Origin: a virus
Lineage: Duplodnaviria; Caudoviricetes
Strand: one strand, 5' to 3'
DNA: 63,981 nucleotides
IMG/VR virus record: IMGVR_UViG_3300014933_000403
Location: 1-63,981 of that record
The position numbers were made by a program, and so were the translations under genes. Each line of letters opens with the position of its first letter. Within the stretch, counting starts at the first letter, position 1. The notes below the pieces were generated by a model. The model searched no databases. It was not told the DNA's origin and was given only the letters and a program-made list of their open reading frames with translations. Shown here one piece after another: positions 2,822 through 43,200 of this stretch.

Positions 2822-3313
2822 ATGCCTTGTGCTTGGCCCGGATGTTCATTTCATAATGTGGACGGAGATTACTGTCCCCGTCATAGACCAAAGGGACAAC
2901 CTAAGGAGAAAAAAGTATACCATATACCTAAGGTGAGTCCTAAGACCCAAGCCAGGCAGGAACAGCATAAGCTTGAGAATGCCGAGATGGATTTATTCTG
3001 GATGCAAGCAGAACGCGAGATCGATAAGAATCCATACTGTATGGAATGCGGTGAGTTTATTGATAAAGAATATTACCGTGCTGCCACAGCCCATATTTTC
3101 CCAAAAGGGATATTTGATTCAATCAAGGCTCACCCAATGAACAAATTATTCCTAGGAGCAGGGTGTGGATGCCACGATCGGACCCATAGGCTTGATACTT
3201 TTTCAAAAATGAAGGTCTGGAAGATAGCAGTTCATCGATTCCAGATATTCCGTCCAATGATCACAGAGAAACATAAATACTTAACCGAATTCGAAAAATA
3301 CGCTAACATATGA
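2822..3313 (+). CDS. HNH/NinG-like zinc-binding nuclease
   Basis: CMECG...AHIFPK...HPMN...CGCHDRTH motifs. Confidence 0.6.
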   Translation: MPCAWPGCSFHNVDGDYCPRHRPKGQPKEKKVYHIPKVSPKTQARQEQHKLENAEMDLFWMQAEREIDKNPYCMECGEFIDKEYYRAATAHIFPKGIFDSIKAHPMNKLFLGAGCGCHDRTHRLDTFSKMKVWKIAVHRFQIFRPMITEKHKYLTEFEKYANI

Positions 3314-7503: not shown

Positions 7504-8412
7504 CGCTGATCATTAATGACGAAGGTGAATTTAAAGATCGTGATATGGCAACTGCGATTGATTCCAATTACCATAAAGGAACAGACTCGCATCGGCAGAG
7601 GTCTATGGTTAAAATTGAAGCCACCACCTTATTCGACCAAGACACCATGCCTACCATGCCTACCATGCGTAAAGGCGGTGCGATGACGATGACCAAAAAG
7701 CACAACTGGGATGTTGTAAAAATAAAATCAGCAACAAAGGATGGTTATGAAGAAGCAACAGTAGGAGATTCTATAAATCTGTCCATCCCCAACTCTGCCA
7801 CCCGAAGGGGCAGAGTTGGGGATGGACAGGCGAACACATTGGATACTCAATCAAACCAGGCAGTGATTGTAGCAAGCAGAGGTCGCGGAGAAAATAATGA
7901 GCAGACGCTAGAACCGAACACCACGAACACCACGAACACCATTACAGGAGTGCAGAAAGACAATATGGTCATGCTTGACACCAGACAGAAAAGCCATGAT
8001 CAAAAATCTGGCAAATCGGGCATCAGAGAATACACAGATGAATCACCAACCATCAGTTCAACTATACAGAAGGATGTACCGAAAGTGATTTCTCAGGAAG
8101 ACAACATGATGCTGCGTGATGGCAGAGACAACAGGTCTTGTCTTAAATCTGGAAGACAGACTGAACTGGGAATGGAAGGCGTATCAATCAGAAGGCTGAC
8201 AGAGGTGGAGTGTGAAAGATTACAGGGATTCCCTGATAATTAGACTAAGTATGGCATCTATGACAGGATGACTAAATTCAACAGAGTTAAGTTTGATTTT
8301 GACTCTATATCTGGGATGAAAGAAATATCACGATCAAGCAGGTATAAATTATGTGGCAATGCAGTAAGCGTATGTATGCCAGAACTAATTGGAAGAAAAA
8401 TACTACAGCAGA

Positions 8413-16715: not shown

Positions 16716-17190
16716 GAAATTAGTCGATAAAAGAAACAAGCAGATACATAAGATCGTTCTCTGCATGAGAGACCCGACTATAATGCTGTGCCTAGGTGCT
16801 AACCTCATGAAGGTATGGGATGTTTATGTTGGTATCACCAAGGATCGGGTAAAGCACCCAGTTGATATGATGATGCTTGCATGGGCTGCCAGACACCCAT
16901 ATTTCAAAAAGAAAGCCTTCCAGGAGGCGTTAAAAGAAATCGACCCGTACTTTATACCGAATACCGAACACTACGCAAGCATAAACGCCATGTTGGGTAG
17001 GATGAAGAAGAGAAAGTGGGTCGATCGTGCTGTCTATAAGGGATCACAGACATGGTTTATAACAACAGAGGGTAAGCTATTTCTGATAGATGTGACGAAC
17101 GCTATCAGAAAGCTTACCCTCGAACTGTTGGTTAAGGCCAAAACACCCGAAGGGATGAGATGGCGAAAGTTTAAATCAATGGGCGGTTAG
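16708..17190 (+). CDS. Winged-helix (MarR-like) DNA-binding protein
   Basis: SINAMLGRMKKRKWVDR...WFITTEGKLFL wing motif. Confidence 0.55.
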   Translation: MSKKLVDKRNKQIHKIVLCMRDPTIMLCLGANLMKVWDVYVGITKDRVKHPVDMMMLAWAARHPYFKKKAFQEALKEIDPYFIPNTEHYASINAMLGRMKKRKWVDRAVYKGSQTWFITTEGKLFLIDVTNAIRKLTLELLVKAKTPEGMRWRKFKSMGG

Positions 17191-17309
17191 TGACCGGTAC
17201 ACAACATAACACAAAACCGCGAATGAGAATATCTGGCAGGCGATCTCCCAAAGCTGCCTTTTTTCCTGTTCTTTTTGCATGACATTAGATTTAAGGTTGG
17301 TTAATAATG

Positions 17310-17630
17310 TTATTCGTAAACGACATCCATCTCAGCTTTCATCTGTTGGATGATCCTCACCACTCCCCACCTGGTCTTACCCAAATGTTCAGCGATAAGC
17401 CTGGCAGAAAGCTTGCCTTCGGTCCGGAAATAATTCTCCCGAACAAATTGACGGTCTTCCTCACTCCACTCACGGGAGTATTCCTTCCTCCAGCCTTCCT
17501 TACGAGCCATGTTCCAAATCTGATCCTTAGTGATCCCGAACTGGGATACTAAATGTTTGATGTCGGTGTCAGGGAAGAGCAGAGACAACTCGGTCTTCTG
17601 CTCTGGTGATAAAATAGGTGTGTTTGCCAT
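17310..17630 (-). CDS. HTH/Myb-like repeat protein
   Basis: LSPEQKTEL and WSEEDRQFVRENY...IAEHLGKTRWGV. Confidence 0.65.
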   Translation of the reverse strand: MANTPILSPEQKTELSLLFPDTDIKHLVSQFGITKDQIWNMARKEGWRKEYSREWSEEDRQFVRENYFRTEGKLSARLIAEHLGKTRWGVVRIIQQMKAEMDVVYE

Positions 17631-17658
17631 AGATTAAATTTAATGAGGTTTGTTAATA

Positions 17659-17811
17659 TTACCACCACTTGGTTTTGCAAGAGGAGGCAATGCAGGCTCT
17701 CTGACCTTTGTTGATTTTGGAATAATTCCTCTCAGTAGCACAGGAAGAAAGGAAAGCAATCACGATGATGAGTCCAATCACTAGGATTGTGAAGTCTGGT
17801 GTTTTTTTCAT
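17659..17811 (-). CDS. Small lipoprotein
   Basis: MKK, hydrophobic core and lipobox LSSC; two further Cys. Confidence 0.65.
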   Translation of the reverse strand: MKKTPDFTILVIGLIIVIAFLSSCATERNYSKINKGQRACIASSCKTKWW

Positions 17812-17828
17812 GTTGGTTGTTTGTTTGG

Positions 17829-18098
17829 TTAATAATAAACGATGCGTAAGTAGCTGCAATCTTTCCGGTTCATAGCTTTCTGAATCTGTTCTAACTCAGC
17901 CACAACCTCTTCGCCAGGATGCTTGCAGTTAGCCATGGAAATGTTCTCGAGCATTCTAGCTACTGAATAGATATGCTCATGGGTGTCTTCATCATTATCA
18001 GTCCACACTTCTTTCTGTGTTCCGATAAGACATACTGTCTCTGCGGTAATTTGGCTAACATGGATGTCAGCGATTCTCAGGATGTTGTCTAGTTTCAT
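17829..18098 (-). CDS. Hypothetical early protein
   Basis: In the tandem minus-strand operon; directly downstream of hammerhead 1. Confidence 0.65.
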   Translation of the reverse strand: MKLDNILRIADIHVSQITAETVCLIGTQKEVWTDNDEDTHEHIYSVARMLENISMANCKHPGEEVVAELEQIQKAMNRKDCSYLRIVYY

Positions 18099-18111
18099 TT
18101 TAAATAATATT

Positions 18112-18163
18112 GGTTAAGACCCTCCGAAGAGGGTTTCGCATATTCAATGCTCGTCAGTTAACC
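18112..18163 (-). ncRNA. Type I hammerhead ribozyme (HH1)
   Basis: Minus strand reads GGUUAA CUGACGA GCAU-UGAAU-AUGC GAAA CCCUC-UUCG-GAGGG UC UUAACC: full core, three stems, GUC site. Confidence 0.93.
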
Positions 18164-18367
18164 TAATTCAGCAACGGTTTCGTTTATTAATTCAATGACA
18201 ATATTGCATGTCCTATAGTCATTATGAATAAAGAACACCTTCTTAGTATCCCTGCATACAATAGCAACTGTTTTACCTTCTGCATCGTCATCATCTGACT
18301 CCCATAAATCTATATGGGTGTAATTTTGGTCATCGGTGTAATCGTTTCTTACTTCGAAAGTTTCCAT
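18158..18367 (-). CDS. Hypothetical acidic early protein
   Basis: 69 aa; its TAA stop forms part of HH1 stem I. Confidence 0.65.
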   Translation of the reverse strand: METFEVRNDYTDDQNYTHIDLWESDDDDAEGKTVAIVCRDTKKVFFIHNDYRTCNIVIELINETVAELG

Positions 18368-18378
18368 GGTTCGTAGTG

Positions 18379-18684
18379 TTATTGGTTAATAATTGGTTGT
18401 GAGGTTTGTTTATCCCGTGTGTAGGCTGAGATGGTTTCGTATACGCGATTCTCGCAGCCTTGGGGGAGGGTAATTGTGGCAATCCCATTAGAAAAAGAAG
18501 GTTTTACCTTTTCCAGGATCGTATCACCCAATTCTTTTTTAAGGTGGGTGATGAAAATTGCCTGAGCGAATGCCGGATATTTTCCATGATCATTGAGAAC
18601 AATGTGCATGAGAGTCGGTCGGGTGGGGACAACAACCAATGGCTGCTGATCCCAGAATGCGTTGGTGTGGGTGGATGGTTTCAT
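18379..18684 (-). CDS. Hypothetical early protein
   Basis: Operon position; ATGA coupling. Confidence 0.6.
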   Translation of the reverse strand: MKPSTHTNAFWDQQPLVVVPTRPTLMHIVLNDHGKYPAFAQAIFITHLKKELGDTILEKVKPSFSNGIATITLPQGCENRVYETISAYTRDKQTSQPIINQ

Positions 18685-18929
18685 TTGCTAAAGGATTGTG
18701 CAGCGTTAGATAATAAGAGTCCTAAAGCCTCTGCCTGTTCTTTGGTATCACAGTCAGCAACACACAGAACATATTCAGATGACTTACGCAAGTAAACACT
18801 CCAATAAGAATGCTGACCTTCGGCACACATTTCAACGTTGCCTTTGCCGTCATCAAATACAGGGCAGATTTCAACATTATCCCATTGGCGATTAGCGGGT
18901 TGGGGATAGAAATTAAGGTTTGTTTTCAT
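18681..18929 (-). CDS. Hypothetical early protein
   Basis: C...WSVY.R....CVAD.DT..QA pattern; operon position. Confidence 0.65.
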   Translation of the reverse strand: MKTNLNFYPQPANRQWDNVEICPVFDDGKGNVEMCAEGQHSYWSVYLRKSSEYVLCVADCDTKEQAEALGLLLSNAAQSFSK

Positions 18930-18935
18930 GGTTGG

Positions 18936-19121
18936 TTATGGGTTTATAGTTCCGTTAGCAATAAGGTCTTGGGCAGTTCTTCCAAACCAACCTTGCAGTT
19001 GGTAGGCAAGACCCGTGTCATGTAAATACTGCCATGCCTCTGTCTGTAATTCCTCAGATGCATCTTCTCCCGGGCCGAATCCTTCGGCAATGGAGGTAGC
19101 TAAGTAGGGTGTCATTATCAT
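18936..19121 (-). CDS. Conserved-looking small phage protein
   Basis: AWQYLHDTGLAYQLQGWFGRTAQDLI; start refined to follow the structured intergenic element. Confidence 0.7.
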   Translation of the reverse strand: MIMTPYLATSIAEGFGPGEDASEELQTEAWQYLHDTGLAYQLQGWFGRTAQDLIANGTINP

Positions 19122-19124
19122 GTT

Positions 19125-19195
19125 GGTTAATTTTTTTACCGACAATGCCCCGAACCATTTACGATTCGAGGCTGCCAGGCTACAAGGTGTTAACC
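19125..19195 (-). ncRNA. Candidate structured intergenic RNA of unknown class
   Basis: Closed by the same GGUUAA/UUAACC helix as both hammerheads; inner CUGGCA/UGUCGG helix and an 11-bp GCCUCGAAUCG/UGGUUCGGGGC hairpin. Confidence 0.5.
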
Positions 19196-19906
19196 TCACC
19201 TTATCACAAATCCGGTCATATCTTTCTTAGCATCTCCCTTGGCTTTTAAGCCTACCACAACACCTGATGGGTCATAATACCTCAAATCGGTCTCATCGCC
19301 ATTAATTACAGGGAATCCGTTCCAACTAGCAGGAAGTTCATTAAAGACAGCAGCAACATTCCCGCCTACCTTCAATATCTCCAGTGCATCAGCCTCATTA
19401 ACCTCAGAACGGGAGAAGGTAAGCTTGTATGGGGTGTTAAGGTATCTGCGGATATGGTTGGGGTTCTTGGTGTAATCGTAGAACAGGATGTTACGAACAT
19501 ATGGCTGACTCAAGAAATCGTTCCCTGTCTTCCTTTTAAGGATGGCAAGATGGTCAATATCAGATGTGCCATTAAGCCTGATGGCAACCATGGTGTTGGT
19601 CTTCTGTGCATGACGGTGAATAGCTTGTATTTCGATAGCCAACTGAAAGTAGAATTGCTCAATATCTTCAATCCAAAAAAGAGATTTGTTGATCCTGGAC
19701 AACTGCACATTGGAGAAACGACCTCTGCCTGCCGTATACAGACATGACTTGCGGCAGCCTTCAGAAGAGTATGGGCAGAGGTTAAAGCCTCTCAGAGCGG
19801 TCTCTGCCGGTGCCATGTACAGGATAAACGTTTCTAGAGCATTCTTAGCGGTCTTAACATTGGTAGAACCTTTGGAAAGAAGGTTTTTTACAGGTTTGTG
19901 TTGCAT
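19196..19906 (-). CDS. GP88-like Cys-cluster phage protein
   Basis: NLCPYSSEGCRKSCLYTAGRG, IRLNGTSDI, FYDYTK, LTFSRSE, GDETDLR, VGLKAKG; start refined to MQHKP. Confidence 0.7.
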   Translation of the reverse strand: MQHKPVKNLLSKGSTNVKTAKNALETFILYMAPAETALRGFNLCPYSSEGCRKSCLYTAGRGRFSNVQLSRINKSLFWIEDIEQFYFQLAIEIQAIHRHAQKTNTMVAIRLNGTSDIDHLAILKRKTGNDFLSQPYVRNILFYDYTKNPNHIRRYLNTPYKLTFSRSEVNEADALEILKVGGNVAAVFNELPASWNGFPVINGDETDLRYYDPSGVVVGLKAKGDAKKDMTGFVIR

Positions 19907-19921
19907 GGTAGTAGTTTTTAT

Positions 19922-19993
19922 GGTTAAGACGGGACAGAATCCTAGGGGGAGGATGTCTGCCCGTTTCGCGGATTCACCGCTCATCAGTTAACC
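19922..19993 (-). ncRNA. Type I hammerhead ribozyme (HH2)
   Basis: Minus strand reads GGUUAA CUGAUGA GCGG-UGAAU-CCGC GAAA CGGGCAGA...UCUGUCCCG UC UUAACC. Confidence 0.93.
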
Positions 19994-20592
19994 TAGAGCA
20001 TATTCATTGCTAGTTCATAGATATCAAGGTCATTCTCTTCACAGTAATCGAATGCAGCAGCCATACGCTTATTGTAGATGGCAGCCTGTTCAGCAGAATA
20101 CAAGGTTTCATTGTTTCTCACATCTATGTACTGAGTGAAATCGGTATCAGGATGGAAGCCCAAGCCTATGTAGTCAATACACTCTCTGAGGAAAGCAACA
20201 ACCTCAGCCTGTAGTGTATACTTGGCAAGCATATCAGCCTCCTCAGTATCATAAGCCTCTACAGAGTCATAAGACACCCAACAGAAACAATAACCTTGCA
20301 GAGAGTAGAAGGTCTCACCATTGAATTCTACAGAGTAGCATTCCTCATCTGTGGCAATACCATTGGCGTATGACCTGTTATAAAATTTGTTGGTGTCTGC
20401 ATTGTACACGATGGTGTCCGCATCATAGTCAGCTACCTCTTCATTCGATAGCATCTCAGTCACTACCTTCAGACTGTTCTCATGGTTGAAGTAGGGGACA
20501 TCCCAACCATTCCATAGGTCACCAAATGTGATACCTGCAATAGGTTGTCTGAAATGGTCTAGTGCGAAGAATTTAAGTGTGGGTGTGTTCAT
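19993..20592 (-). CDS. Hypothetical acidic early protein, probably two domains
   Basis: WNGWDVPYF N-terminal domain and GLGFHPDTDF..Y...DIYELA C-terminal domain. Confidence 0.7.
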   Translation of the reverse strand: MNTPTLKFFALDHFRQPIAGITFGDLWNGWDVPYFNHENSLKVVTEMLSNEEVADYDADTIVYNADTNKFYNRSYANGIATDEECYSVEFNGETFYSLQGYCFCWVSYDSVEAYDTEEADMLAKYTLQAEVVAFLRECIDYIGLGFHPDTDFTQYIDVRNNETLYSAEQAAIYNKRMAAAFDYCEENDLDIYELAMNML

Positions 20593-20627
20593 GATGTGTT
20601 TGGTTTATTGTTAGTAAATAAATGTGA

Positions 20628-20807
20628 TTAATACCCAAGCCAATGGGCAACCTTTGTGAGTGACCAATCTGTAACGTCAACCCAATTGCTAGCGTCTGTG
20701 CTGCTGCCATCAGGATAGAACTGAGTAGCTACCTCGAATGCTAATATTCTGCCGCAGCATTCTTTGGTGTCGATTCCGTGTTGGTGTAATGCGGTAAGTA
20801 AATCCAT
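20628..20807 (-). CDS. Small hypothetical protein, 59 aa, not in the ORF track
   Basis: MDLLTALHQHGIDTKECCG...WVDVTDWSLTKVAHWLGY; first gene after the putative promoter. Confidence 0.6.
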   Translation of the reverse strand: MDLLTALHQHGIDTKECCGRILAFEVATQFYPDGSSTDASNWVDVTDWSLTKVAHWLGY

Positions 20808-20852
20808 GGTTAAAAGTTTTAATGTGATGCCCTACATCGGGCGATTGTGAGT

Positions 20853-20886
20853 GCAATATACACAAGAAAACAATAAACACAACAAA
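20853..20886 (-). promoter_or_regulatory. Putative promoter of the early operon
   Basis: Minus strand TTTG-N21-GTATATTGC, an imperfect Bacteroidota -33/-7 match in an AT-rich gap. Confidence 0.45.
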
Positions 20887-21092
20887 ACAACAAAGAAATA
20901 TTTTCAGACATGACACAAGTGATTGAAACACATCCAATTGCGGTGTGAAATATTTTTTTCTTTAATGAGTGGTGAATTGTGGCAAATTATAAGCTTTACC
21001 AGTCAGCATAAATTGGCTGTAATGCAGGATCACCGGGCATTTCAGCGGTTTAAAGCCTCTGAGAATCGCACGGATGAGAATGAGTTGGGAGA

Positions 21093-21563
21093 TTATGCAG
21101 CAGTCTTGTTCTGAAGTGCTAGCTGATAGGCATTGATAGCAGCCTCAACCCTATTCCATTTCCATATGGAAGAATCGAATGAGTTGGCATCTGAATAGCC
21201 AAGGAATCGGGCTAATGATTTGCCTTTGAGACCTGTTGCAGCCTTGAATAATGGCAGCCTTGGGCGAGTGTTTAACCTGTGGTGGCAAGTGTATTTGAAG
21301 TATGACTCTAGGGCAGCATTCCTAGCATATGCAACCCTATCCTTCATCACACACCAATCTCTGAAGTCTGCGACCATAGAACGAACATTGGATGGGTAAT
21401 TTGCCCTTATGTACATCTCACCTTTGGAGTTGAGGAATGTCTCAATCCACTTGTATGAGTTGAACTTACTGTACTGTGAGTTGTCCATGTCTATATCTTC
21501 GGGTGATACGACAAAGGTAAATGCATAGCCATATACAGACCAAATTAGCCCTGATGTCAGCAT
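21093..21563 (-). CDS. Hypothetical protein with a possible C-terminal HTH
   Basis: FKAATGLKGKSLARFLGYSDANSF; start uncertain. Confidence 0.5.
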   Translation of the reverse strand: MLTSGLIWSVYGYAFTFVVSPEDIDMDNSQYSKFNSYKWIETFLNSKGEMYIRANYPSNVRSMVADFRDWCVMKDRVAYARNAALESYFKYTCHHRLNTRPRLPLFKAATGLKGKSLARFLGYSDANSFDSSIWKWNRVEAAINAYQLALQNKTAA

Positions 21564-21908
21564 CCTGCACCTGATAGCTATCTCTCACACAGAGCGACCG
21601 CAGCAGCCTGTTGCCACATCAGCTTTGCCTCGTTCGATGGTGGGGTAGGGGAGGGGCTGCGACCTCATGACACGATGTCTACTTAACATAATTATAGTTA
21701 TTAGGCTGATTTAGAGCGAGCGATTCCATGCGTCTGAAGTCAGTCTGGGCGATGGTTTCCGATAGCTGAAAAGCGACCCACCCCATGCGGCAGGAGTGCG
21801 TTTGCCCCTGTACCCTGGCGGCCGGTGGATCAGGTATGAACCCCTACTCACAGATTACAGGGTACCCGGGTCGTAATAGAAGGTACCCTCCCACTGACCA
21901 CTGGGCAT

Positions 21909-21935
21909 AAAAAAGCCCCCGTAAAGGAGGTCTTT
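21909..21935 (-). terminator. Intrinsic terminator
   Basis: Minus-strand GC hairpin followed by TTTTTT, downstream of the 21954 gene. Confidence 0.55.
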
Positions 21936-21953
21936 CTGCTCACAGAAGAAAGC

Positions 21954-22220
21954 TTAATCATCATAATCCCATGGCGATCTATACCCATACTCCCTCACCA
22001 GATCAGCTACAGTCTCCACATACTCAGCCGGTATTTCTCCTTCCTTCAGGTACTTATCGAACCTGGATCTTATTATTCCGGACCCTCTACAGATGCCAGA
22101 TCGGTTTAAAAGCGGCCTTTCTCTTAGCCAGGATGCCAATATCTGACCTTCAGGCTGCTGAATCGGTGGCTCCCATCCTTCTGGAGAACCGTATACCATG
22201 ATCACATGTTGAGTTGCCAT
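21954..22220 (-). CDS. Putative HTH DNA-binding protein
   Basis: WL......NRSGICRGSGI.RS.FDKYL...IP...L...VREYGY; resembles the C-terminal part of 23912..24178. Confidence 0.55.
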   Translation of the reverse strand: MATQHVIMVYGSPEGWEPPIQQPEGQILASWLRERPLLNRSGICRGSGIIRSRFDKYLKEGEIPAEYVETVADLVREYGYRSPWDYDD

Positions 22221-22274
22221 AATCGTTCTTTAATCTTTTTTTTAAGGGTCTAAACCCCGTGTTTTGGAGCATTT

Positions 22275-22793
22275 TTAGCCTTTTCTGCCTCTAAACTTAG
22301 CAGAAATCAGCTTCATCGATAAGTTCAATGCCAGATGTTGGTACATCCTGGTAGTACATAACGCATCCTTCGAAAGCTGTTTAGCCACTTTTACTATCCG
22401 AAAAGTGTATCTGATGTACGGTTTACCATACCTAGGCGTGTATTCATACGGTGTTGCGTATATCAATCCGCATTGCCCAGGCACTTCCGCATGATCAATA
22501 AGCCCTTCTGGGACCACATAGTAAAACCGGTTCACCCTCTTTCCCTGCAGCAGTATATCGTGCTTACTGGTTAGTGTGCCGTATCTGACCGAACCCATCG
22601 TCTTATTGAAATCAGCCTTAAAGTCTGCCCTAGACACCTTTACCTCGTATTCATACAGGTGTCCAGATGTAGAAACTTTCAATACATCACACTCCCATGT
22701 GCCTATGTAGTAGTTGGGCACAACAATCTCAGCCCTGGCTCTTGCTACCCATGACATCAGTGATACGGTTATATCGCATGCTCTTATCTTCAT
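22275..22793 (-). CDS. MmcB-like PD-(D/E)XK nuclease-fold protein
   Basis: ECDVL...EYEVKVSRADFKADF.K...NRFYYVVPEGLI...GLIY. Confidence 0.75.
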   Translation of the reverse strand: MKIRACDITVSLMSWVARARAEIVVPNYYIGTWECDVLKVSTSGHLYEYEVKVSRADFKADFNKTMGSVRYGTLTSKHDILLQGKRVNRFYYVVPEGLIDHAEVPGQCGLIYATPYEYTPRYGKPYIRYTFRIVKVAKQLSKDALCTTRMYQHLALNLSMKLISAKFRGRKG

Positions 22794-23284
22794 CTTCTTT
22801 TAAAGTCCTTATCATCATAGGTTAATGCACCAAACTTGAGGAAAAAGCTTCCTGTACCCTCTTTTGGGTCACCAGGCATCCATTTAACGCTAGCGGAAGG
22901 TGTGAATACTGGTCTGTCATTCTTATCTACCTTATACAAAGGCATTGCCTTGATCATATCTTCCTTAGTAGCCTCTTCCTCGGTAATACTATTCCCCTTC
23001 GTCACTGTTATTACCGGTGCCTTATCTGCCTTGATACCATATCTGAAGTGGCAGAAGCCATGCTGTGGGTGTCTGGGCAACCCGTTTAACCTGATCAGAA
23101 GTATATCCATATCTTCCTTGGTGAAGCCCGTAGCATCAAACTTAACTACGAATGTTTCTGATCCTGGTAGCTTGTCCTGTGCTTTCTTCCAGTATACGGA
23201 CCTGCAGGTACTATTGCAGAACCTCTTTTCCTTTTTGCCTGGCGTGGCAATTATTGGTTTATTACAGTTTAAACATTCGCTCAT
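22790..23284 (-). CDS. Zinc-finger protein
   Basis: N-terminal CLNC...KRFCNSTCR. Confidence 0.65.
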   Translation of the reverse strand: MSECLNCNKPIIATPGKKEKRFCNSTCRSVYWKKAQDKLPGSETFVVKFDATGFTKEDMDILLIRLNGLPRHPQHGFCHFRYGIKADKAPVITVTKGNSITEEEATKEDMIKAMPLYKVDKNDRPVFTPSASVKWMPGDPKEGTGSFFLKFGALTYDDKDFKRR

Positions 23285-23296
23285 AATGTAAAGTTA

Positions 23297-23320
23297 AACG
23301 ATTTAAACGTTTAAATCGTT
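23297..23320. promoter_or_regulatory. Perfect 24-bp palindrome, probable operator
   Basis: AACGATTTAAAC|GTTTAAATCGTT just upstream of the minus-strand -7-like TAACTTTA and ATG 23284. Confidence 0.6.
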
Positions 23321-23366
23321 GCAGGTGTGAACTCTTTACCGCATTTGGTGTATTGGCAGATCATGG

Positions 23367-23597
23367 TTACGGCTTTACTAGTTCTAACTGGTCTTCATTA
23401 AACCAAGATCCTTTCTCCGGTATGCCTGATACGGAATAAGACGGTTTATTCTGTACTGTGCTCACCTTGGTTACCATACCTTCCTTACCTACGATGCCAG
23501 GCAGTGCATCATACTCTGATCTCACACCATTTGATGTGGTGAATACTTGGTGTCCGTAGTTAACCACCTTTACTTTGTCTCCTAGATTGAATTTCAT
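23367..23597 (-). CDS. Small SH3/KOW-like protein
   Basis: KFNLGDKVKV...GMVTKV...Y.V...WFNEDQLELV. Confidence 0.65.
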   Translation of the reverse strand: MKFNLGDKVKVVNYGHQVFTTSNGVRSEYDALPGIVGKEGMVTKVSTVQNKPSYSVSGIPEKGSWFNEDQLELVKP

Positions 23598-23645
23598 ATT
23601 TGTTATTTTAATCCGTACACCCGCCAGATAAGCTGTTGACTGTCC

Positions 23646-23915
23646 TCATAAATCCTTCAATTTAAACTCTATGCAATTCCCTGCTCCATTACCCGCATCC
23701 TCACTCATTAATATCGGGAAAGCCACGAATGTGTCCAGGAATACCATACATACCCTGCATGGGATTTTGTTTACGGTAACACATGACCCTACCTTTAACT
23801 GGCCAATAGGTACGATCGCCTTATCTACCGGCACATTTACTCCACTCAGGTCTTTAATGATGGACGGAGCAACGATTATGGTCGCTATTGATTTTAAGAA
23901 GTCGCTTCTTTTCAT
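23646..23915 (-). CDS. Hypothetical protein with a TAT-like N-terminus
   Basis: MKRSDFLKSIATIIVAP. Confidence 0.55.
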   Translation of the reverse strand: MKRSDFLKSIATIIVAPSIIKDLSGVNVPVDKAIVPIGQLKVGSCVTVNKIPCRVCMVFLDTFVAFPILMSEDAGNGAGNCIEFKLKDL

Positions 23916-24178
23916 TTCTTATACCCATATTTACTGATCACCTTTATGATCTTCCCCAGGTTCTCCTCGCTGATCTGTCCCTTACTGATGCCGGTAGATA
24001 GATTCCCTTGGTTCACTCCTGCCTCTTGGCAAATAGCGGATATCTTTATCTGTTGGTTATCTCTGAACCATTTTAGCACAGATGTGTTGGTATCTGCCCA
24101 GTTTTTCACATGGCTCATATCCACGGTAGCTTTACCGTCTGTTAACCTTACTGATAGTATTTTAGTTCCTTTGCCCAT
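23912..24178 (-). CDS. HTH (Cro/XRE-like) regulator
   Basis: ISAICQEAGVNQGNLSTGISKG; first gene of a divergent promoter. Confidence 0.6.
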   Translation of the reverse strand: MGKGTKILSVRLTDGKATVDMSHVKNWADTNTSVLKWFRDNQQIKISAICQEAGVNQGNLSTGISKGQISEENLGKIIKVISKYGYKK

Positions 24179-24195
24179 GGTTGTTGTTTATTTGT

Positions 24196-24243
24196 CAAAA
24201 GTAAAATAATTATTTGGGAATACAAATAATATTTATAGCTTTG
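24196..24243. promoter_or_regulatory. Overlapping divergent Bacteroidota promoters
   Basis: Plus strand TTTG(24213)-N19-TAGCTTTG(24236); minus strand TTTG(24226)-N19-TACTTTTG(24203); both match TTTG-N19-21-TAnnTTTG exactly. Confidence 0.85.
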
Positions 24244-24261
24244 AGTTCTAAATAAAAAAAT

Positions 24262-24612
24262 ATGCATAACTACAAAAACGTACAAACAGGGCAGGTGATC
24301 TCTGCCACAGACTTTATGTCTTTAACTAAAAGCCGTAATGAATGGGCTGTATCTGATGAGCCGGTTAACGCAAAGGTCGAAACTATTGTTTCCCCCGCCA
24401 CACCTGCGGCAGAATTTCCTGAGTTCCCAGTTAATGAAGACCTGAACCATGATCAACCTACTATTGATCATGTTGTAACAGAAGATGATTTGAAAGATAA
24501 CCCATCACTGGTTGAAGAAGGTGTGCAGGAAGGAGAAACGATTCAGGTACCGGCTCCGGTTATTGAGGATGGTATTCCTGGTACCGAGCCAGAAGTGGAT
24601 CCCGCAGCATAA
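24262..24612 (+). CDS. Highly acidic hypothetical protein
   Basis: E/D/P-rich; HVVTEDDLKDNPSLVEEGVQEGETIQVP is LysM-like in pattern. Confidence 0.65.
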   Translation: MHNYKNVQTGQVISATDFMSLTKSRNEWAVSDEPVNAKVETIVSPATPAAEFPEFPVNEDLNHDQPTIDHVVTEDDLKDNPSLVEEGVQEGETIQVPAPVIEDGIPGTEPEVDPAA

Positions 24613-24746
24613 AGATAATCCGCTATTGTACGTTGGGGGTATATAAGTGAGCGTACTAACACCTGCCTGAGTAGGGTTTATTTGATCTCGGTGGTTAAAT
24701 ATGTCCTGGGTTATGAGTAAAATCAGAAGGCTCAGGCGGGTGAAAC

Positions 24747-24816
24747 GGGGAGGTAACTCAGGGGCAGAGTAGCAGCTTAGGCTTGTTAGTCGGTGGTTCG
24801 AATCCACCCCTCTCCA
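24747..24816 (+). tRNA. Atypical tRNA with a UAG (Leu) anticodon and an alanine-type acceptor stem
   Basis: GGGGAGG/CCTCTCC-A acceptor, ACTC/GAGT D-stem, CT-TAG-GC loop, GGTGG-TTCGAAT-CCACC T-arm; 70 nt, short variable loop, no encoded CCA. Confidence 0.75.
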
Positions 24817-24817
24817 C

Positions 24818-30308: not shown

Positions 30309-30333
30309 TGAGTTAGGAATATTAATTTAAACA

Positions 30334-30357
30334 ATACGCCCCTTTATTGGGGCGTAT
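30334..30357. terminator. Hairpin between the convergent MCP and HNH genes
   Basis: ATACGCCCC-tttatt-GGGGCGTAT followed by a T-rich tract. Confidence 0.55.
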
Positions 30358-30781
30358 CTGTTTTCTTCCATGTCTTCCCGTTTTTTACTCTATTGATTGC
30401 AGACTTGCACATGCCGAACTGAACCATCAGTTCTTTTGTTGACTTACCGCAAGTCCGTATGTATTCAGCAGACTCTTCCGTTAGCTTTGCAACAGTGCTA
30501 TTTCTTGTATTCTGTAAATGGGTGGCCCATCTAAAATTATCTGGGCCGTAGTTGCCGTCATTATCTACCCGATCTAGTTCTAATCCTTCCTTGTATCCTT
30601 CTATAACATCATCATAGAAATTTTTGAAATCGTCCAACCATCTTTGGCAAACGGTTATTCCGCGACCACCATATCTATGGTACCTGACTCTGGTAGTATT
30701 GTAGCACCGATCTTTCATGTCAGACCAAATTCCGTATAGTTTATGGCTTCTTAGTTTGTGCTGTTTTTTACGTTCTTTCAT
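30344..30781 (-). mobile_element. Free-standing HNH-type homing endonuclease
   Basis: LYGIWSDMKDRC...YGGRGITVCQRW...LDRVDNDGNY.PDNFRWAT...N, with a C-terminal HTH; start refined to MKERKK. Confidence 0.85.
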
Positions 30782-40261: not shown

Positions 40262-43200
40262 ATGACCGATCCACAAACACAAATAGACGAGGTTACACTA
40301 GATAAACCTATCGCAGGTACTAAGTTTAAGCCTGTGGGCGATGTGCCTGAAGGTATGTTTGATAACAAAATGTCCGATCAGGACTTCGCAGAACTTTTAA
40401 AGAAGCAAAAACCAAAGACTGTTGGCGAGGCTGCCGTCATTGGCATGTCACAATACATGCTTGATCAGAAGAAAAACTACCAAGGAATTAAGAATAATGA
40501 GCAGGTTTCTAATAGGATGATTGCTCAGTCGGCCGACAAACTAAACAAAGTAAATACTCAACAGGTACCCATCGAAGATGATAAGGCAGCAAAGGATTTA
40601 GCTAAACGCCAGGCTGAATTCGAGAGAGACCTGTATGCAGATTATAGTATCCCAGAAGATCAGCGTCATGAAGGATCTATCGTTAAGATGCCAAAAGGCA
40701 TGCGTAGTGATTACGTTGATCACCTAGGCATGAAGAATCCTGCTTGGACTAGAGAATATGTTCAATTGCGTAAAGACCCAGATACCGGTAAATTATCCTG
40801 GCAGGGGTACAACAAGCCTTCTGTAATCAGAGGAGAGAGTGATATTACTATGTTCAGTACCAGGTTTAAGGACGAAGGATTTACTGAGCAGGTTGATGAT
40901 AAGACAGGGCTTAAAAGCAAAGTGCCCACCAAAGAAGTGCAGGCGTTTTGGGATAAGCAGGCTACCGATAAAGATTACAGTGAAGAAGCTACCAGAGCAA
41001 CGAATTTATTGCGTAACATGGAGGCATCAGGCAACTACCGTGTGAGTAAAATGATGGCATCCAACCCTGAGTTATGGAAGAACTTCAAGGCAGAGACAGG
41101 TTTTTTAACTGGGCAGGATCTAAATGAAGGTGGTGCTATGCAGGCTGCCGACAATGCTATCATGAAGACATTTGAGATGGATACGCCATTATCCAAGGTA
41201 GCACCTCATTATGCTCCATGGGCAATCATGGATGCTATTGATAAGCATAACCAGTTCGCAGAATACACCGATAAATATAATCAGGATCAGGATAATATAT
41301 CAGCAAAACTTCGGTTAGCAGGAGAGCCTTCGCTTTACCAAAAAATGCCGGAGGCTTTCGACAGGTTGCACGAGATCGAAGCACAGATGATGCGTGATCC
41401 TAAAAGTGTATCCCCGGCAGACCAGAAACAGTACAACGCCATCAAGCTTGAGCTGACCAAACACACTCTGGAAACCATGAAGGATTCTCCTCTGTCTGCT
41501 GCGTTTAAAATGAAGGCTGCTGAATACAAGGTGAAGAATGATCAGCATTTAAAAGATATTGAATTACTCGGCACACCCGATGGCCAGGCTGCACTCTCCC
41601 TGTTATCCAAACAGGCAAAAGGATATGAGATGTCGCAAAGGCTGCCAGATTACTTCCCGGGTATGAAACAGGCAGAAAAAGAGCAGAAAGCTATCGATGA
41701 GAAAGGGGATTACTTTTCTTCTATAAAAACATTCCTGAGAGGAGTGCGTAATTCTACCGAGTCAATCAGGTCAGGAATCATGCGTGATATCGGGTTTACT
41801 GAAGACCAGATTGGGAAAGAAATTTCTGGTGAAAAAAAGTCAGAACTTGATTTAAGAACTCCTATACGTGCAGGTAATACCGCATGGGAGAAGTTAGCAA
41901 ATTTCTCAGACGGCTTGGGTGAAATGGCTGGTGGGTTAGCCCCGGTGATGGCTATGACCATGGCTGTCGGAGGCGGTTCTATTAGCGGCACCATACCTTT
42001 TATTCTACGGGAAGGTGTCCCATTCTTTCTACAAGGGCAGAACGATTATTACCGTGAGGCTAGAGCCAACGGGTTGGATAATGTAACCGCCCACTTAAAA
42101 GGAATTCTTGGCGGTTCTGCGTTAGTACTCAGCCAAAGTATTCTTCCAAAAGGAAAACTACTTGACCATGGCGTTATCAATAAGGAAATTGAAGAGGTGA
42201 TCAAGAAGGGTGTGGTTGATAAATCAGCACTTGAAAGTTTTTATTCAAAGTTCATATCTTCTGGTATCCACGCAACTGGTGCCGGCGCTGCCATCACTAC
42301 CGCTAACGGCATGGCTGATTGGGCTATGAATAGCTACATCAATATGCAGAAAGGGACGAAGCTTCCTGCCGACCAGCTTGAGCCAGGCAAGATTTCTGAG
42401 TCTGCACTGATGTTTGGTGTGATGGGATCGATTATGAATGGGGTCTCCTCATTTGGAGACAAGTCTGCAGCACGATCTATGGTGCTAAAGATGGCAGAAG
42501 ATCATCCGCTTACCACTCTCCGGGCCATAGATGACGCAATTACCATTTCAAAAACAGATGCATCTTATAACGAGACCGCACTGCAGCGAATGAAAAAGGA
42601 TGTGTCTGAGGCTATACAGATGAGTTACCCGGAAAGCTTTACCAAGGAACAAAGAATAGCAACGTTCGACCTGATCAAGAAAAAAGAAGAACTACAACAG
42701 GAGCAATCAACGGTAGGCTCTGAATTTAAAGGATCATTTGAGCAGAAGATTAAGGCAATTGATGATAAAATAAAAGAGGTAGCCGACAAACCAGAATCGG
42801 CACAAAAACATTTGGATGAGGTATCCGACCCATTATATAAAAAACTTGAATCAGAAGGCTACTTTGATGTTCCATCTAAGAAGGAAGAGAAGAAAGCTGA
42901 AGACCAATCAAAAAAAGAAGCAGCTGTGGCCAAGTCGGAGTCGGCCCCTGTATTGATTCGCCATGGCGAAACTGATTCAAACAAGCTAGGCCTTACCGGT
43001 GCAGCTGATGATCCATTGAATGAGAAGGGCAAAGTGCAGGCTGAAAAGCTTGGCGAAGAATTGGCGGCAAGTGGGATTAAGAACGTTGTTACGTCACCAA
43101 TGACCCGGGCACAGGAAACAGCTGAAGCGATTGTTGGGAAGACAGGTGGCGAGGTGGTTACTAATGATAAGCTTGCCGAGTGGAATACTGGTGCAGATAA

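Follow-up and report, generated by a model that had tools for sequence, protein, structure and literature searches.

A predicted self-cleaving type I hammerhead in an intercistronic spacer of an uncultured tailed phage, and the covarying phage family to which it belongs

Hammerheads have reportedly been found in the human microbiome (a 2011 JBC paper is said to describe them), and the seeds of the Rfam family RF00163 (Hammerhead_1) are mostly eukaryotic satellite and Schistosoma-like sequences. For prophages, the relevant sections of Perreault et al. 2011 (PMC3088659) describe multiple hammerheads that flank genes, report that all of them cut in polycistronic in vitro transcripts of ~2 kb, note that the flanked genes are not constant, and propose that such clustered copies cut long phage transcripts. 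In a halovirus, according to the same sections, 13 nt separate a hammerhead from the start codon that follows it, and its cut falls no more than 3 nt from a mapped 5′ end (PMC3088659). The part of a 2019 review that deals with bacterial and phage hammerheads nevertheless gives their biological role as undetermined (PMC6765202).

The locus described here lies in a 63,981-nt IMG/VR record (IMGVR_UViG_3300014933_000403; hereafter the window, meaning the whole stretch of DNA analyzed), which is ~89% complete and represents a tailed phage encoding a DnaB-like helicase, a DNA methyltransferase, a portal and virion proteins. Two hammerheads, HH2 (19993..19922) and its paralog HH1 (18163..18112), fall within a series of small minus-strand genes (24178..17310); both are on that strand, and five ORFs lie in the 1.8 kb that separates them. 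This kind of element is already known, and HH2 is an ordinary, well-supported phage hammerhead; that it is self-cleaving and transcribed within this early-type cluster of an uncultured tailed phage is, in our judgment, very probable.

Compared with the copies treated in the pertinent sections of Perreault et al. 2011 (PMC3088659), HH2 and HH1 similarly have a canonical core and occur as several copies flanking genes or short blocks whose identity varies, and, as in other clustered phage and prophage hammerheads, they share one orientation and are flanked by phage operon genes. Unlike the set presented there, they are of type I: stem I is always 6 bp with an invariant A on either side, stem II has 4 bp and a U-N-N-N-U pentaloop, and there is no evident pseudoknot. 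HHphage of haloviruses HF1/HF2, as characterized in that source, likewise sits in an early polycistronic region and precedes its start codon by 13 nt, comparable to the 13–15 nt that follow stem I here; however, it carries atypical core insertions and has an archaeal host, whereas the HH2 core is fully canonical (PMC3088659). Type I hammerheads of eukaryotic RNA viruses, in the portions of the literature that bear on them, also lie just upstream of the coding region and leave a short leader once cut, but they are linked to cap-independent translation, whereas the present case concerns a DNA phage and internal initiation on bacterial mRNA. Twister ribozymes, according to the corresponding part of the 2019 review (PMC6765202), occur in the same gene neighborhoods, occupy phage-like intergenic slots and have been assigned the same proposed role in mRNA processing, although their fold is unrelated to that of HH2. 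RF00163 has the core in common, and also the layout in which only stem I is open, yet it matches neither HH1 nor HH2 at E≤10; stem I of the present copies is short and lacks an internal loop. Nor do HH2 and HH1 delimit a viroid-like or retrozyme circular RNA element, since the 1810 nt between their predicted cuts are ordinary phage coding sequence in a 64-kb DNA phage record.

HH2 occupies the spacer between a 199-aa gene of unknown function upstream (20592..19993, minus strand; phrog_9945) and a GP88-family gene downstream (19906..19196, minus strand; PF17338, phrog_1617; 236 aa), the true start of which is the ATG at 19906. Its 5′ end, G19993, is the final base of the upstream gene's stop codon TAG (19995–19993), and 15 nt separate its 3′ end from ATG 19906. 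Reading of the sequence resolves its 72 nt, in order, into the stem I 5′ strand GGUUAA (19993–19988), the catalytic core strand CUGAUGA (C3–A9; 19987–19981, including an ATG at 19984), the stem II hairpin (GCGG, 19980–19977; loop II UGAAU, 19976–19972; CCGC, 19971–19968), the core GAAA (G12 A13 A14 A15.1; 19967–19964), the stem III hairpin (19964–19929), UC and the stem I 3′ strand UUAACC (19927–19922). Stem III comprises ~14 bp under a 6-nt loop, CCCCCU, in segments of 5, 4 and 5 bp separated by the bulged U19934 and the bulged C19955, and its first pairs are A19964–U19929 (A15.1–U16.1) followed by C–G. Every position that defines the hammerhead core is therefore present (C3 U4 G5 A6 N7 G8 A9, G12 A13 A14 and A15.1–U16.1), the cleavage triplet GUC (19930–19928) conforms to N-U-H with H17 not G, and the topology is type I, with stem I open and stems II and III closed by loops. 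From the canonical hammerhead core, the scissile bond is predicted between C19928 (position 17) and U19927, so that UUAACC would form the 5′ end of the downstream mRNA once cut. Family comparison further marks a conserved unpaired A directly 5′ (19994) and another directly 3′ (19921) of stem I. A stem I internal loop or a pseudoknot partner of loop II was looked for in HH2, and neither was found.

In folding calculations, an 86-nt stretch containing HH2 reaches −28.9 kcal/mol (z = −3.8), a value equaled in none of 200 shuffles. In isolation, the hammerhead fold of HH2 (−26.8 kcal/mol) lies 0.6 kcal/mol above the minimum free energy (MFE) of −27.4 kcal/mol, while the MFE structure of HH1 is exactly the hammerhead fold (−15.2 kcal/mol); in ensembles with 80-nt flanks, stem I has a pairing probability of ~0.25 in HH2 versus 0.49 in HH1.

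HH1 is a 52-nt type I hammerhead with a predicted cut between C18118 and U18117, and it is embedded in much the same way: the stop codon TAA of its upstream gene (18367..18158, minus strand) forms the last three bases of the stem I 5′ strand, and the ATG of its downstream gene (18098..17829, minus strand) lies 13 nt past stem I. Its core, CUGACGA, differs from that of HH2 solely at the variable position 7, and its stem I, stem I flanks and loop II are identical to those of HH2; stem II is GCAU/AUGC, and stem III has 6 bp and a UUCG loop. The initial annotation, which had reported the same stem I and loop II in both copies, a stem II changed from GCAU/AUGC to GCGG/CCGC, an extended stem III in HH2 and a predicted cleavage between 19928 and 19927, is borne out on each point: both versions of stem II are paired, the change between them is compensatory, the ~14 bp of the HH2 stem III with its two single-base bulges stand against 6 bp in HH1, and the predicted bond agrees with the canonical core position. 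Its further proposal of selection on structure is also supported, and by far the greater weight of that support comes from an alignment of 95 members of the family; HH1 and HH2 by themselves contribute compensatory changes at 2 pairs of stem II and along the whole of stem III. As a separate observation, a 13-mer in the last codons of the upstream gene (20010–19998, minus strand), 4 nt 5′ of HH2, is one base off the HH1 stem II/loop II hairpin; its chance expectation in the window is ~0.1, and either a remnant of an earlier copy or coincidence could account for it.

To delineate the family, we used a search pattern that fixed the core, the stem II closing pair, the loop UGAAU and the first base of stem III, and this pattern scan recovered at least 119 viral-contig loci. 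Among the 120 matches listed, a strict parser accepted 114 as complete type I hammerheads, of which 100 are unique, and the stem I and stem III pairing of members is to that extent pre-selected. In an alignment of 95 members from the matches listed, 99.7% of the 1367 pair cells hold standard pairs, compared with 64.5% in shuffles and at most 35.9% when the partners are slid against each other. Both sides have changed in 12 of the 15 pairs, with 468 double-change cells versus 132 expected, and the covariation score was reached in none of 500 shuffles. The three inner stem II pairs, which the search pattern left free, are paired in 100% of the 95 members with 4–5 pair types each, and the columns of the hammerhead core are invariant in the same aligned set. 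The three helices around the core are hence backed by covariation across the family.

Searches of the window single out the same two copies. The 24-base pattern spanning the core, stem II and loop II occurs twice with at most one mismatch, versus 0.02 occurrences expected, and none of 100 shuffles contained two or more; a descriptor scan for complete type I or III hammerheads returned only HH1 and HH2 with good stems. R2, a covariance model built from 93 sequences of other viral contigs with the window's own sequences excluded, scored HH2 at 59.5 bits (rough E 5e-12) and HH1 at 68.7 bits (rough E 3e-14), and with filters off it gave no further match at E≤1 across all 63,981 bases. The Rfam 15 hammerhead models (RF00163, RF00008 and RF02275-7) matched neither copy at gathering scores over the whole window; RF00163 run alone had no match in the whole record, and no hammerhead family appeared at E≤10 in 301 bases around HH2. 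Since these models report neither copy, the assignment of HH2 to its class rests on the motif and on our own models. A gathering-score scan of 12 related loci, in which at least 13 members lie, was likewise negative for hammerhead families; the current Rfam models overlook a large group of type I hammerheads from phages. At the same threshold, the window yielded no match to twister or any other ribozyme family. Against 50,697 phage records, neither megablast of 4 kb around HH2 nor blastn of the 79-nt HH2 element gave a match. We found no description of this subfamily in the literature; the supplementary alignments of PMC3088659 may already contain members.

Several weaker candidates in the window were rejected. 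The one near hit to Rfam at the site, a match to the Bacteroidetes sRNA FopS on the strand opposite HH2 (19898–19969, plus strand), reached 20.3 bits where the gathering score is 56 (E 0.64) and is probably noise produced by the UUAACC...ACCAUG leader together with the hairpin. A third CTGATGA...GAAA (24353–24382, plus strand) lacks a stem II and is situated in an ORF, a weak core at 41793–41832 (plus strand) has only 3-bp stems and falls within a long ORF, and a match to model R1 at 30325–30439 reached 10.8 bits; all three are attributed to chance.

Beyond the core, the members share a regular anatomy that was not specified in the search. Stem I is 6 bp long in all 100 unique members listed, each of which has an A directly 5′ and another directly 3′ of it; in 89 of the 100 a second A follows on the 3′ side. 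Further paralogs in the same contigs carry the 5′ A in 41 of 43 cases and the 3′ AA in 32 of 43, and their loop II is mostly U-N-N-N-U. The A's that bracket stem I and the U's of loop II suggest a putative tertiary contact between stem I and loop II. The cleavage triplet of the 100 unique members listed is GUC in 95 and GUA in 5, and their commonest stem I, GGUUAA/UUAACC, occurs in 24. As a hint to the host, leaders that follow copies of this GGUUAA type mostly lack a Shine-Dalgarno-like motif, which is present in 6 of 23 cases, versus 32 of 60 for other stem I types.

The position of the ribozyme relative to its neighboring genes is equally regular. Among the 100 unique members listed, the ATG that opens the next ORF lies 10–25 nt after stem I in 69, 26–40 nt in 11, more than 40 nt in 15 and less than 10 nt in 3, with none in 2 (median 20 nt). 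On the other side, the stop codon of a long upstream ORF abuts or overlaps the ribozyme in 53 of the 100 listed, lies 2–15 nt upstream in 14 and 16–60 nt upstream in 8, while 25 have no long ORF. Stop-codon overlap and ATG spacing thus form a family rule, and HH2 has both. The anatomy of the family is very regular in its invariant A's on both sides of stem I, its set spacing to the start codon that follows and its overlap with the stop codon that precedes.

Copies also cluster, with 28 of 117 locus strands carrying 2–4 copies, mostly 0.2–1.1 kb apart. Within a locus, 39 of 57 pairs of copies have the same stem I, compared with 13 for stem II and 10 for stem III; between loci, the corresponding counts among 1895 pairs are 409, 148 and 88. 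The most conserved part of the family outside the core is the stem I 3′ strand plus AA. Such sharing may result from common descent, or from the way stem I overlaps stop codons and the leader downstream; a more speculative explanation is that the products of different copies may have to re-pair. Taken with the family regularities, the sharing of stem I within a genome provides testable handles on the role of hammerheads in phages.

The most likely role of HH2, as we infer it from these features, would be to cut a polycistronic early mRNA. The RNA would fold into three helices around the conserved core and cut itself after C19928, leaving an upstream message that ends in a compact ribozyme with a 2′,3′-cyclic phosphate and a GP88-family message that starts with a 5′-hydroxyl and a 21-nt leader (UUAACC plus 15 nt) ahead of the AUG. 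Together with HH1, 1.8 kb downstream, HH2 would divide a long transcript into pieces free to differ in stability and translation, and the two cuts would release an 1810-nt piece with five genes (U19927..C18118). HH2 and HH1 therefore mark two likely sites of mRNA processing, with any consequence for expression depending on the presumed cleavage and on co-transcription of the flanking genes, which their orientation and tight spacing, and only these, suggest.

Signals that might delimit the transcript were also surveyed. Terminator-like hairpins with T-runs occur at 21779–21930 (minus strand), in a 390-nt gap of the minus-strand cluster, because of which the cluster may comprise more than one transcription unit. 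At its head lies a promoter-like motif with the consensus TTTG ... TAnnTTTG (24226..24196, minus strand). The motif occurs 3 times in the whole window versus 2.39 expected, which is not above chance, and it is its position alone, as the head of the hammerhead-bearing operon, that is suggestive. Two such motifs (TTTG, 17–23 nt, TAnnTTTG), divergent and overlapping, fall exactly between the divergent gene clusters (24196–24243) and hint at a Bacteroidota-type host. A sigma-70 promoter scan of 17,000–24,700 was uninformative, as it gave 9 sites versus 16.3 expected. Nearby, at 24747–24817 (plus strand), is a single tRNA-Leu gene (anticodon tag), to which the Rfam tRNA model assigns 48 bits in agreement with ARAGORN.

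It is also possible, though on balance we doubt it, that HH2 serves chiefly to activate translation of the gene that follows and that the separation of messages for differential decay is secondary; either the cut or the compact fold would yield a short 5′-hydroxyl leader and free the start region. The tight spacing between stem I and ATG (10–25 nt in 69 of the 100 listed; 15 nt in HH2 and 13 nt in HH1) is in keeping with such a function, but it may merely mirror the compactness of phage intergenic regions. The conservation of the stem I 3′ strand plus AA, which paralogs have in common (stem I is the same in 39 of 57 within-locus pairs), also speaks for it. A precedent comes from type I hammerheads in the 5′ UTRs of RNA viruses, for which self-cleavage is described as needed for eukaryotic translation initiation in the portion of a 2026 study devoted to them (PMC13725137); however, that portion concerns cap-independent translation in eukaryotes, whereas in bacteria translation starts internally on uncut polycistronic RNA.

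A further reading starts from the sharing of stem I. Because copies in one genome tend to share it, the products of different copies could re-pair and religate: the 5′ end of the 1810-nt piece (U19927..C18118) would pair again with HH1, and the reverse reaction would yield a circular or trans-joined mRNA. The stem I and flanks of HH1 and HH2 are exactly alike while their stems II and III have diverged, the same imbalance is seen across the family (39 against 13 of 57 pairs within loci, 409 against 148 of 1895 between them), and the type I topology keeps the whole catalytic core on the fragment that bears the cyclic phosphate. On the other hand, a 6-bp stem I with four A–U pairs should dissociate fast, some loci hold copies with differing stem I, and overlap with the stop codon and leader or recent common descent could explain the sharing as well. 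In the sections of Perreault et al. that address the matter, spliced or circular products were raised as a possibility, looked for and not detected (PMC3088659). We consider such a reaction at HH2 and HH1 highly unlikely. A broader version, in which the family is an uncatalogued type I subclass whose A-capped 6-bp stem I docks on a U-N-N-N-U loop II and whose products are religated into circular or reshuffled mRNAs, strikes us as a long shot; were it true, the five-gene HH2–HH1 piece of 1810 nt would be the circular or reshuffled product here.

Very improbable indeed is a role for HH2 as a structured spacer that does not cut, that is, a hammerhead-derived 3′ stabilizing hairpin or a protein-binding element. 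The alternative pairings of HH2 in its context would fit such a spacer, as would its absence from the orthologous site: 80 loci of GP88 homologs (42–70% identity) gave 0 model matches and 0 core motifs, and for that reason we regard the link between HH2 and GP88 as not conserved. This absence is also consistent with the non-constant flanked genes reported in the prophage sections of PMC3088659. Against a spacer stand the catalytic core positions, all intact in both HH1 and HH2, and the core columns, invariant in the 95 aligned members while the helices vary freely, a combination that points to selection for catalysis rather than for a hairpin.

That HH2 is a chance motif in coding sequence, at the N-terminal end of a longer, 262-aa form of the downstream gene, has a negligible probability, for although a listed ORF (19984..19196, minus strand) begins at the ATG inside the core CUGAUGA and crosses HH2, the Pfam GP88 profile aligns from residue 10 onward of the protein translated from ATG 19906 (profile positions 3–228 of 230 on residues 10–235), alignments to GP88 homologs in other contigs begin at residue 1–3 of that protein with none showing an N-terminal extension, and HH2 scores 59.5 bits with the independent model R2. 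The ORF through HH2 is an artifact, as the initial annotation had claimed in stating that the ORF track wrongly extends the downstream gene. HH2 thus adds one more well-supported phage hammerhead and corrects the start of a GP88 homolog from 19984 to 19906.

Returning to the family, its occurrence in cellular genomes is limited. R2 run against 101 genomes of one bacterial family gave 1 match, the seed genome itself, and the GGTTAA-type pattern was recovered from 12 bacterial contigs, six of which, judging by their names, we take to be Bacteroidota, plus one Balneolaceae; the family is rare in chromosomes. One complete bacterial chromosome (L213, 3868–4074, minus strand; also L214 and L215) carries a tandem pair of GGTTAA-type type I hammerheads separated by ~165 nt in which no ORF is obvious, an arrangement from which a short RNA would be excised by two ribozymes with identical stem I. 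In two viral contigs (L037, ~3080–3154, and L108, ~7945–8019, both plus strand), a hammerhead directly follows the 3′ end of an apparent tRNA gene (GGTTCAAACCC...), which suggests, from the sequence context, that some copies may sit at tRNA–mRNA boundaries.
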